This document shows, one piece after another, positions 33,001 to 36,000 of a DNA stretch of 51,823 bases. Origin of the DNA: a virus (taxonomy: Duplodnaviria; Heunggongvirae; Uroviricota; Caudoviricetes); the IMG/VR virus record IMGVR_UViG_2721755725_000010; one strand, written 5' to 3'. How positions within the stretch are numbered: the stretch's first letter is position 1; every line of letters begins with the position of its first letter. The position numbers are program-made.

Positions 33001-36000
33001 TATTGCAGCCGCCTCACGGCGACGGGGTTTATCCTCCGGCTCTGATTTTTTCTGCCGGTAAACAGGAACCTCATCCACCTCCACCGTCTCGCACTGTTTA
33101 CGGGCTATAAACGCAAGCACCTCCGGATCTTTTGCCAGCTGCGAGCCTTTAACCCTGGCTGTCTTCGCCGAATAACCGGCGGCAAGGGCTGACGCTGTTT
33201 TGTTTTTCCCGGACATGAGCGCCAGCGCAAATTTTCGTTTTTGCGTTGTCAGCACAGCCTCCTCCCGGGTCCAGAACGCACTCAGCCGGGTATGGTTCAG
33301 CCCATTTTTCCCGGCGTCTCATGCCGCAAATGTTAACTGCTGCCTGGTTAACATTTGCTGAAAAAGCCAGTTAACATTTTTTTCGCACAACAAACTGAAT
33401 AATAAAGATAAAAACCGAAAAAATGCCCGGGCAGCCAGTTAACATGTTAACTGGCCTGAAACAGGAATTTTTTCTCTGCATGAGACGGGGGGCGGTGTCC
33501 GGGGCGATCGTTTTTTTTCGCCGGATGATCCCCCCCGGGTCTGGTCACAGGCCAGTGATTCCGTCGGCCCTGAGCGTGCCATCAGGAAGCTCAGGCAACG
33601 TCGGATCAGGCATACCACTCGCCGCTTCACTCGCTGACTTCTGGCGATGGCATTCAGTACAGAGGGTCCAGAGGTTCGTCTCCTCATTACCACCACCGAA
33701 CTGAAGTGCAATGCGGTGATCGAGTTCACTGTCACAGAGGTCAACCACGCGTCTACAGAGACAACAGTGTCCGGCATCCCTCCGCCAGATACGACGTTTG
33801 AGGGAAACCCGGGCACTGCCACTGACACGACGCTGTTCACCCTTCAGAATATTCACCCGCCGGGTGTTCAGAGTTTTGATTCTGCCCGGTAACGTACGAA
33901 GCACAGCCATGAAAAATCCTCGCCATATAGCTTGTCACCAGAGGAAAGAAAATGTCATCGAAAAACCGGCCCGCAGAACAACAACCCGCAACATCCGATT
34001 TCCAAACCAGATGATTGAACAAATTAACATCGCTCTTGACCAGAAAGGTTCAGAAAATTTTTCTGCGTGGGTCATTGAATCTTGCCGCCGGGAGCTGGCA
34101 GCAGACATAAAATATGCCCGTCAGTTGACTATAAAAAAGAATGATACACAGTATGCTCTGCGATGGCTGTTCATATAACTATTTCTTTATATTGCTGAAT
34201 TTATAAAAAATCACAGACATTAGCTGTATTAATTCCGAATTGAAATAATCAGCCATATAGAATAAAAATAAAGCATAACAATAATAATCTTCTACCCAAT
34301 CAGTACATTACTGCTGTGACTCCAACACGGCAGTTTTTTTATTGAACAGATTCCAGTTTCTTCCACCATCGCACCGGACGGGCGACCATGAGGGGAGAAC
34401 GCCGCGCTCCGTTTACGCGGTAAACCCCGGTGTGTATCGTTTTTGATTATCCCCGCACACTCTCGCAGAGGAGTCTCCCTGTCGGGCTGCGGTCTCTGTT
34501 AATGCAGGAATACGGCGACAATACCGCGCATGGATAATAAGGTCGCTCAACACACTGGCTGTAATTCAGCGGATACCATTCGGCATTTATCAGTATTCAT
34601 CACACACTCAACGGTGAATTCTTCATGCGTGGCATTCACTTCATATGTTCGTGAATAACATTCAGTGCATTTACCTCTGAACACCTCTTCAAGCAGAACA
34701 CGGCCATGTTGCAAAACACGGAACGGAATTGTTCCCTGAAAAGGTTTTACCGTTACCTGTAATTTCTTCATACATCCTCCGGATAATAAAAAGCCTGCTT
34801 AGTACACTGAGTGCGGATATAGTCCTGCGCCCCTTCCAGCTGCTTCTGCATTGTCATCAACCGTTCTCTGAGGATGAAATAATCCCGTTCAGCGGTGTCT
34901 GCCAGTCGGGGGCCGGTTGCATTATCCACGCCGGAGGTGCCGGTGGCTTCACGCACGGTACCGGGGCAGGTGGCGTTGATCCGCAGGCGCTTACGACCAG
35001 CGGCAACATCAGCGCGCAGAGTTTCATTTTCAGCTCTCGCATCGGCTAATTCCCTCGAGTATCTGGCATCAAGTGCAGCAACATCACGCTGGCGCTGCTG
35101 CATATCAGTAATGGTTGCATTTGCCAGCTCCAGCTCACTGACTTTTTTATCGCGCTGCTCTTTGTAGGTTATGGCGTTATCACGGTAATGATTCAGTCCC
35201 AGACTAAGCGCACCACAGGCCACCAGCAGGGCAATGATGACCACGCACAGTACGCGGTTCATTTCACCACCAGCGTATCTGACCAATGAAATAACCGGAA
35301 GCCATAATCACAAACACCCGCCAGATAAGGATGAACTTCCAGGTGGATAATTTTTCAGCCATCATTCGAATCTCCCGAATCAGTTTGCTAAAATCAAACA
35401 CACTTTCTCCTTTGACTTTTCCGGAGTCAGGAAACACAAAACCCCGCTTGCGGTCAACAAACGGGCTTTTACTTTTATTCACTTAGTTTTTGCCAGTTCG
35501 CAGGATTTCGTGTTATCCGCCCGTGTGAGCAAACCGCATTTTTCAGCAAAATATTCTGCTTATCTGTCAATTCCCCAGCACGCCAGCGCGCTCTCCTGGT
35601 CACGCCGTGAGACCTGACCGTAGCAGTTGTTTGAGCGAATACGGCAGTCTCTGCCACCGTCCTTAATCCACCAGCGAATCGCCTCGCATGCTCCCCTGCG
35701 GTCACCAGCATTAATCCGTCTGTAAAACGTCGACGGGAAACACTTACCGGGGCCAATGTTGTACGGACAGAATGACGCAATCCCCGCTTTCTGGGGTTCG
35801 GTCAGTGGCACTCTGATGTTTTTCTCCACCCATGCCAGCGCCTTATCACGTTCAATGGCGTTAACCTGGTCGCATTTTTCCTTCGACAACTTCATGCCCG
35901 GGACGACAGGTTTACCATCCACCAGGATGGCACCGCGGCAGATGGTCCAGATACCCGCACCATCACGGTATGCCGTGGTGTGGTTACCTTCTTTTTCGTC

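Follow-up and report, generated by a model that had tools for sequence, protein, structure and literature searches.

Apparent overlapping start codons beside a prophage packaging HNH gene and their probable origin in a one-base frameshift of ylcI/ynfO

Introduction

Do two divergent genes of a lambdoid prophage begin on one shared tetranucleotide? The question is raised by a locus in the virus record IMGVR_UViG_2721755725_000010, a Caudoviricetes sequence of 51,823 nucleotides (nt), the whole of which is hereafter called the window. In this locus, the tetranucleotide CATG at 33908-33911 contains both the start codon of an HNH endonuclease gene (on the complement) and the first ATG of a plus-strand open reading frame (ORF) of 89 amino acids (aa) that resembles YlcI/YnfO. 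A sequence-only reading of the window took this overlap to be the organisation of the gene pair, and regarded the plus-strand gene, a putative ribbon-helix-helix (RHH) gene, as a self-contained moron. The comparisons described below indicate that the correct description would be a frameshifted YlcI/YnfO gene beside a packaging HNH gene.

Results and Discussion

Identity of the gene pair

Both ATGs were confirmed in CATG; the two ORFs extend over 33545-33910 (minus strand, HNH) and 33909-34178 (plus strand, 89 aa). The identities proposed for the divergent genes were borne out as well. The HNH gene, which encodes 121 aa, matched phrog_589 and PF01844 (26.9 bits, cut-off 21.4). The plus-strand ORF scored 62.4 bits against PF13132 (DUF3950, cut-off 25) and matched phrog_949 with an E-value of 2e-32. 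Against NF041551 (YlcI_YnfO_N, cut-off 30), it scored 38.7 bits, and the intact 75-aa form of the protein 39.2 bits.

The 1.2 kb around the pair recur widely: 211 phage records contain them, as do thousands of E. coli genomes. A protein identical to the HNH protein of the window is found on about 1000 contigs under the name HNH endonuclease. Its start is the PGAP start of WP_000279803.1 in the O111 11128 prophage, and the start is kept in the HNH gene of Salmonella phage FSL SP-016 (62% identity). The gene on the other strand is annotated as 66-75 aa in YYZ-2008, Stx2_EH2201, JLK-2012 and the O111:H- 11128 prophage. The locus is the standard, already annotated YlcI/YnfO (DUF3950) gene of lambdoid prophages beside an HNH gene, and the pair is ordinary and widely present.

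The start codon of ylcI/ynfO and the divergent spacer

The annotated start in these four relatives is the ATG equivalent to position 33952 of the window, 41 nt from the HNH start, and the 75-aa protein WP_000095736.1 begins at this same codon. In the window, ATG 33952 follows a plus-strand Shine-Dalgarno (SD) sequence, AGGA (33942-33945), with a spacing of 6 nt and a duplex energy with the anti-SD sequence of -6.0 kcal/mol. The SD sequence of the HNH gene, GAGGA on the minus strand (complement of 33917-33921), gave -6.4 kcal/mol. These energies place the two starts among the top 6-9% of the ATGs in the window, 33952 being in the top 9%. The value for ATG 33909 was -0.2 kcal/mol, i.e. there is essentially no pairing.

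All of the 24 homologues compared, the K-12 and lambda types included, start with MS[ST]KN[RK].. followed by RRTTTRNIRFPNQMIEQINIAL, the conserved N-terminus of the family being MS[ST]KNR..RRTTTRNIRFPNQ. The 21-residue N-terminus of the 89-aa ORF is unique against these homologues. When codons 1-50 of the window-type and lambda-type alleles were compared, 18 of the 26 differences fell at third codon positions, and 13 of the differing codons were synonymous and 7 non-synonymous. This excess indicates that the canonical frame is the frame under selection. These comparisons show that the real start of ylcI/ynfO is ATG 33952, which follows AGGA at a distance of 41 nt from where HNH begins. The length of 89 aa that had been claimed is not that of the gene, since the family start lies 43 nt downstream of the claimed one.

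The true divergent spacer is therefore the 41-nt segment 33911-33951, which holds the SD sequences of both genes. As the two SD sequences fill the spacer, no room is left in it for promoters. The HNH gene would consequently be served by read-through of the late operon, and any promoter of ylcI would lie inside the HNH coding sequence. The earlier proposal that there is no intergenic promoter space thus stands in a weaker form: the space is indeed occupied, but the starts do not overlap.

A missing base and the probably accidental 89-aa ORF

Across the aligned 1.2 kb (33400-34600), a single base separates the window from O111 11128. At 33970-33972 (plus strand), the window has a run of three C (C3), whereas its relatives have four (C4, in the context GGCCCCGC) or ACCC. 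This 1-nt deletion causes a frameshift at codon 7. In the family, the product begins with MS[ST]KN[RK].. and continues into RRTTTRNIRFPNQMIEQ without a change of frame. The window still encodes MSSKNRP at 33952, but the deletion has put it out of frame with the body of the gene. The canonical start with its SD sequence now opens a frame of only 20 codons (33952-34014, plus strand), translated as MSSKNRPAEQQPATSDFQTR*, and the stop codon of this frame, TGA at 34012-34014, overlaps an ATG within the gene body at 34011-34013 (ATGA). Owing to the missing C, the body of ylcI falls into the frame of ATG 33909. The resulting ORF of 33909-34178 is composed of 21 unrelated N-terminal residues and residues 8-75 of YlcI.

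A second position is also involved. Alignments showed that position 33912 (plus strand) is A in the window and in the O111 prophages and T in most relatives; in YYZ-2008 and Stx2_EH2201, for example, the T gives ATG-TAA. Among 33 loci with an intact allele, the codon after the equivalent of ATG 33909 is TAA in 29 and AAA in 4. Without the A that this lineage carries at 33912, the frame of ATG 33909 would not be open. The genes that encode WP_000095736.1, found in O111 prophages, in YYZ-2008 (YYZ_gp48) and in Stx-converting phages, have the same HNH partner and the same terminator as the window copy. Unlike it, however, they have the C4 run and encode a 75-aa product that starts 41 nt from the HNH start, and most of the copies outside O111 also differ from it by the T at 33912.

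These facts suggest that the shared CATG start is very probably an accident, caused either by a private frameshift or by a homopolymer sequencing error. In both cases, the overlap is a property of this single sequence, not of the genetic system, and the idea that it is a feature of how the two genes are organised is not supported: the overlap comes from a private 1-nt deletion, and most relatives read ATG-TAA at this point. A mechanical ORF call has made a one-base frameshift or sequencing error look like a pair of genes with a common start codon, and the finding is of interest chiefly for annotation.

It is worth considering another interpretation, in which a genuine 89-aa protein is made from ATG 33909, either because the two genes are entangled by design, in translation or in transcription, or because the upstream ATG rescues the frameshift. 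The ORF is open, and its residues 22-89 keep the whole conserved core from RRTTTRNIRF onward. The weak promoter-like site at 33822-33850, described below, would place ATG 33909 on an mRNA, and the exact 89-aa protein has been deposited once; a peptide from MKNPRHIACHQRKENVIEKPA would be expected of it. ATG 33909, however, is without an SD sequence, its frame is closed by TAA in the great majority of the intact relatives, and none of the 24 homologues shares the 21-residue extension. The deletion allele was found in none of the complete E. coli genomes or IMG/VR contigs searched (see the following section). Moreover, the strong canonical SD sequence and ATG persist and would load ribosomes into the 20-codon dead-end frame. 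A genuine 89-aa protein is thus highly unlikely. Programmed -1 frameshifting at G-AAA-AAC, which would bring the body back into frame, was also considered; the heptamer is not a canonical slippery one, and the intact allele needs no frameshifting.

The copy of ylcI in the window is most likely either non-functional or mis-sequenced. If the deletion is real, the main product is likely to be the 20-residue peptide from the strong start, with the 89-aa form made at most in traces. The same is likely for a 55-aa form re-initiated at ATG 34011, which would be without the presumed DNA-reading strand.

Mutation or sequencing error

The exact 89-aa protein has one UniParc identifier and was found on no contig; for the 75-aa form, the count is 971 contigs. 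When a 70-nt probe spanning the deletion was used, none of 5,426 complete E. coli genomes had an exact match; the same probe found 580 records at 95-99%, and the top matches listed were intact alleles aligned with a single gap. In IMG/VR, exact scanning found the C3 allele on no contig and the C4 allele on 30.

In the comparison with O111 11128, about 4 positions differed over about 23 kb; this figure leaves out a recombinant patch at 24-29 kb and the blocks 5538-6848 and 39777-44958, which are absent from O111 11128. The recombinant patch (24000-29200) has 12-57 mismatches per kb and several indels against O111 11128. At position 27471, the window has C6 and 11128 has C5; the position falls inside the portal gene, for which the PGAP annotation of 11128 gives a frameshift.

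It is quite possible, though somewhat short of an even chance, that the missing C is a homopolymer error of sequencing or assembly, in which case the real phage would have an intact 75-aa gene and there would be nothing unusual about the locus. The change is one of length by a single base in a C run, it is one of the few differences in a comparison that is otherwise identical, and the C3 allele was seen in no other genome searched. Similar frameshifted translations of the same stretch, such as those named P0174 and P0201 here, come from noisy assemblies that carry the lambda allele and look like lambda control DNA. On the other hand, the window is otherwise clean, with stretches of 5.5 kb and 6.9 kb that contain 0-1 differences, and C4 is a short run for an error of this kind. 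Other truncated alleles also exist, e.g. a 55-aa form beginning MIEQ on 9 contigs, which indicates that real decay of ylcI does occur.

Relatives of the gene in lambda and K-12

The likeness between the window gene and YlcI of DLP12 and YnfO of Qin in K-12 is that of members of one family, which have in common the same conserved N-terminal 50 residues and the same placement, antisense to and immediately before packaging genes. They differ in that the window copy is frameshifted at codon 7. In addition, the K-12 genes adjoin cos/Nu1 (nohD/nohA), whereas the window copy adjoins the HNH gene of an HK97-type module.

Phage lambda itself (NC_001416) contains a 64-aa YlcI/YnfO homologue on the complement of 48109-48303, which is unannotated in the RefSeq record. 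It lies about 200 nt from the right cos end and is the last ORF of at least 25 aa before that end. Like the window gene, it is antisense to the late transcript (leftward in lambda). The DNA identity is 85.8% over a 140-nt core, and the protein identity is 83% over residues 1-52, as determined with lambda-derived contigs. It differs from the window gene in having no HNH gene, an unrelated upstream sequence and no predicted downstream terminator. The name lambda 'orf-64' was considered for this homologue and dropped, because it belongs to lambdap73, between Q and S (PMC10695390).

The lambda allele also occurs on contigs, about 3.5 kb or 48.5 kb long, that are assigned to unrelated taxa such as Streptomyces, Cohnella, Pedobacter and Pseudomonas; these look like contamination with lambda control DNA.

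A 70-nt probe over the 5' end of ylcI matched 3,407 of the 5,426 complete E. coli genomes. The wider point is a modest one: YlcI/YnfO is very common in E. coli prophages, and an unannotated copy is present in lambda.

Is ylcI/ynfO a moron?

Morons such as lambda bor and lom are accessory genes of phages, a concept that arose from the comparative genomics of HK97 and HK022. The ylcI gene of the window resembles them in its low G+C content relative to the flanks, in having its own terminator, in its location on the strand opposite to the late operon and in its presence or absence among related phages. The G+C content is 27-43% over 33925-34375, compared with 50-64% in HNH and terS (about 55% in the flanks), and it is lowest, 27-33%, in an AT-rich 3' untranslated stretch at 34179-34309 (plus strand). 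The plus-strand terminator that had been proposed is present at 34310-34340: the stem (34310-34334) has 9 bp with 5 GC pairs and is followed by a T7 tail. This intrinsic terminator is predicted on the plus strand only, its hairpin is present in the minimum free energy fold, and it is kept in YYZ-2008. The gene lies antisense within the late operon, between the lysis genes (holin, lysozyme and Rz) and the HNH, terS and terL genes, as had been described. As for presence and absence, FSL SP-016 has the same HNH-terS-terL order without a DUF3950 gene, and a co-directional gene overlaps the HNH start there; since the neighbour on the far side differs too, this is not a clean insertion. Transcription of ylcI in the cryptic K-12 prophage DLP12 (PMC12288877) also agrees with a moron, as an indirect sign that the gene may be expressed from a repressed prophage.

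Several other observations fit a self-contained moron less well. Promoter-like sites were not in excess, 3 being found where 2.3 were expected from shuffled sequences. The only candidate upstream of ylcI is a weak site inside the HNH gene, CTGACA-17-CAGAAT at 33822-33850 (plus strand), with a match of 9/12; it was undetected in YYZ-2008, and a scan of the sequence before the lambda allele gave no such site. That allele is not followed by a predicted terminator, and the terminator-carrying segment 34105-34352 has no match in JLK-2012. Furthermore, the only part that the window has in common with the lambda, Qin, DLP12 and E. albertii alleles is a core of 140 nt (33952-34091, plus strand; codons 1-47), which in blastn has 85-87% identity and begins exactly at the ATG. 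Both flanks are unrelated, and the C-terminal tail, the 3' region and the terminator of the window copy are likewise unrelated to those of the K-12 and lambda alleles. Across the family, the C-terminal tails are hypervariable. What the phages have in common is therefore a coding core of 140 nt and not a cassette of promoter, gene and terminator, and in this respect, as in having no recognisable promoter, ylcI is unlike bor and lom. The moron description is thus partly supported: the antisense placement, low G+C content, terminator, and presence or absence fit it, but no promoter stands out against shuffled sequences, and neither the flanks nor the terminator are conserved across phage types.

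A second promoter-like site, TTGAAA-18-AAAAAT at 34240-34269 (plus strand), precedes the terminator hairpin by 40 nt and is kept in YYZ-2008. Initiation there could yield an RNA of about 65 nt, distinct from the mRNA of ylcI. It could then be supposed that the cassette acts mainly as RNA, in that an antisense transcript, or a short RNA running from 34240-34269 to 34310-34340, damps leaky late transcription that runs into the HNH and terminase genes in the lysogen. The orientation convergent with the late operon agrees with this idea, as does the conservation of this site and the terminator in YYZ-2008. In K-12 RNA-seq, moreover, a convergent transcript overlap of ybcW and ylcI in the cryptic prophage DLP12 is listed as an 'excludon' (PMC12288877). 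The core, however, is under purifying selection at the protein level, promoter-like counts do not exceed those of shuffled sequences, and lambda-type alleles are without the terminator segment. The region 33200-34800 of the window gave no Rfam match at E <= 1. A mainly RNA-level function is therefore very unlikely.

A possible ribbon-helix-helix regulator

In agreement with what had been stated of the function, ynfO continues to be listed as uncharacterised (PMC11551758). In the literature on ylcI, ynfO and DUF3950, we found mutation tables, gene lists and one list of excludons, and no functional study.

The family has a pattern of a basic tail, [KR]-x-I-R-F-[PST], a helix, a G/S loop and N-F-S-A-W-V opening a second helix. 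This pattern can be aligned without gaps with Arc of P22 (NLRWP...G-R-S...N-S-E), in the register N-[IL]-R-[FW]-P ... G-x-S ... S at the start of the second helix. The hhalign comparison of the family with Arc recovered this NIRFP/NLRWP register weakly (P = 0.024), and that with Mnt gave the same register, also weakly (P = 0.2). An AlphaFold2 (AF2) single-chain model, of low confidence, showed coil-helix-loop-helix; a second one, built from a more diverse alignment, was worse than the first and likewise of low confidence. Foldseek gave 19 weak matches, all of them to chains of TCP domains or to DNA-bound ArtA, which we take to be RHH-type folds.

No RHH model of Pfam matched any of 17 family members at E <= 10, and when PDB sequences were searched, neither the protein itself nor the profile of the family gave a meaningful match. 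The protein thus resembles Arc and Mnt of the Arc/MetJ/CopG superfamily in its small size and gapless register, but it differs from them in the weak statistics, the lack of a Pfam RHH or PDB match and the low confidence of the models. The RHH fold that had been proposed is plausible for YlcI/YnfO.

On this basis, the intact protein may be a small dimeric DNA-binding regulator of the RHH type, composed of a basic tail, a strand (NIRF), a helix, a G-S loop, a second helix (NFSAWV) and a hypervariable tail. The regulator would be made from its own leftward transcript in the lysogen, and the gene would be carried as an AT-rich, moron-like accessory cassette dispensable for lytic growth, while HNH would be expressed by read-through of the late transcript across this antisense cassette. 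We propose tentatively, at rather less than an even chance, that ylcI/ynfO encodes such a lysogen-made RHH regulator in an accessory cassette not needed for lytic growth.

Copies outside phages are consistent with a stand-alone regulator. DUF3950 genes in chromosomal, non-prophage positions were found in four Tatumella species, where they are syntenic and 94-100% identical, and one was found in Rouxiella. The Tatumella copies lie upstream of a CitMHS-type transporter gene, with a malic enzyme on the other side in 3 of the 4 loci, and the Rouxiella copy follows cytochrome bd oxidase genes. These loci show that the protein is kept outside phages, which fits a regulator acting on its own.

A toxin-antitoxin system, with an RHH antitoxin and a variable tail, was also considered; there is no co-directional partner ORF after the gene either here or in lambda, and this candidate was rejected.

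A possible link to DNA packaging

The position of the gene raises a further possibility. In all phage contexts examined, ylcI runs antisense to the late operon and directly adjoins the packaging module in divergent orientation; this arrangement was seen in YYZ-2008, Stx2_EH2201, O111 11128, JLK-2012, lambda, and Qin- and DLP12-like loci. The packaging-side neighbour is cos/Nu1 in lambda-type phages and HNH in the HK97-type module.

YlcI/YnfO might then be a DNA-binding factor linked to packaging, with cos, its vicinity or the small terminase as the place of action, instead of a moron expressed in the lysogen. The gene is always next to the packaging module in these two unrelated systems. Such a role agrees with its position about 200 nt from the right cos end in lambda and from the cos-proximal sequence in the Qin, DLP12 and E. 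albertii prophages; in the window, the distance to HNH is 41 nt.

Fusion proteins provide another point in its favour. In four proteins (P0229, P0247, P0248 and P0250), a DUF3950 N-terminal domain is joined to the N-terminal helix-turn-helix part of a Terminase_2 small terminase, and this C-terminal part of the fusion is 56% identical to residues 2-57 of the TerS of the window. A fifth protein, P0249, has a divergent N-terminal domain, with a DUF3950 match below threshold only. The fusion is a lone antisense gene on two contigs (L053, 4714-5103, and L086, 8001-8429; Logan SRR22184587 and SRR33017773). These contigs represent satellite-like elements with an integrase, a 69-aa gene and a P4-alpha-like primase, and one of the elements adjoins a prophage module with HNH and Terminase_2.

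On the other hand, phage types with unrelated sequences upstream, on the cos side, have an identical N-terminal segment, FSL SP-016 has the same packaging module without the gene, and non-phage chromosomal copies are kept in Tatumella and Rouxiella. In addition, the gene is antisense to the late operon, from which the packaging proteins are made. A role of YlcI/YnfO as a packaging factor is therefore improbable. That DUF3950 is a DNA-binding or dimerisation module linked to packaging, and not a passenger gene, is likewise quite improbable. If it were true, the satellite fusion could be a repressor or a factor that redirects the packaging of the helper phage, and the phage copy would modulate cos recognition or terminase expression.

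Binding of the adjacent cos-like palindromes is also unlikely as a general role of YlcI/YnfO, because the presumed DNA-reading N-terminus is identical in lambda-type phages, where the sequence up to the cos end is unrelated. The fixed place of the gene next to the packaging module, and the terminase fusions of the satellite-like elements, open the function of YlcI/YnfO to simple experiments.

Layout of the late operon and other observations

The late operon of the prophage is on the minus strand, in the order holin (36493-36768), lysozyme (35560-36093), Rz/Rz1 (34768-35286), a 74-aa ORF (34547-34771), HNH, a palindrome region, terS (32692-33255) and terL (31034-32695). The mechanical 89-aa ORF (DUF3950) separates the 74-aa ORF from HNH and is on the opposite (plus) strand; HNH is the first gene of a packaging module of HNH, cos, terS and terL.

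The 290-nt stretch between HNH and terS contains a cluster of repeats centred on GTTAAC at 33326-33455. This cluster is probably the cos or the terS-binding region of the HK97-type module. Within it, a perfect 22-bp palindrome, GCCAGTTAACA/TGTTAACTGGC, is present at 33434-33455. The HNH gene of the window resembles those of the HK97 gp74 type in being directly upstream of cos-like repeats, terS and terL, a comparison based on gene order and domain alone. HNH genes that adjoin cos and terminase genes are a described arrangement (PMC3592412, PMC9410871).

The 74-aa ORF matched only positions 100-172 of the 291-position profile of phrog_2571 (unknown function) and may be a fragment. In YYZ-2008 this ORF is absent and Rz follows directly.

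Between the terminator and the 74-aa ORF, a GC-rich segment at 34352-34532 that looks non-coding is kept in JLK-2012, DLP12-like and E. albertii prophages. An unusual RNA structure was considered for the GC-rich stretch 34345-34546 on the late strand and was rejected, as the fold was no more stable than those of shuffled sequences (z = 0.17).

Elsewhere in the window, Rfam matches were obtained for AgvB (39147-39208, plus strand), STnc100 (39209-39399, minus strand) and DicF (47017-47068, plus strand). Three IS3-type ALIL frameshift pseudoknots were also found, at 5876, 40115 and 42950, in the blocks 5538-6848 and 39777-44958.

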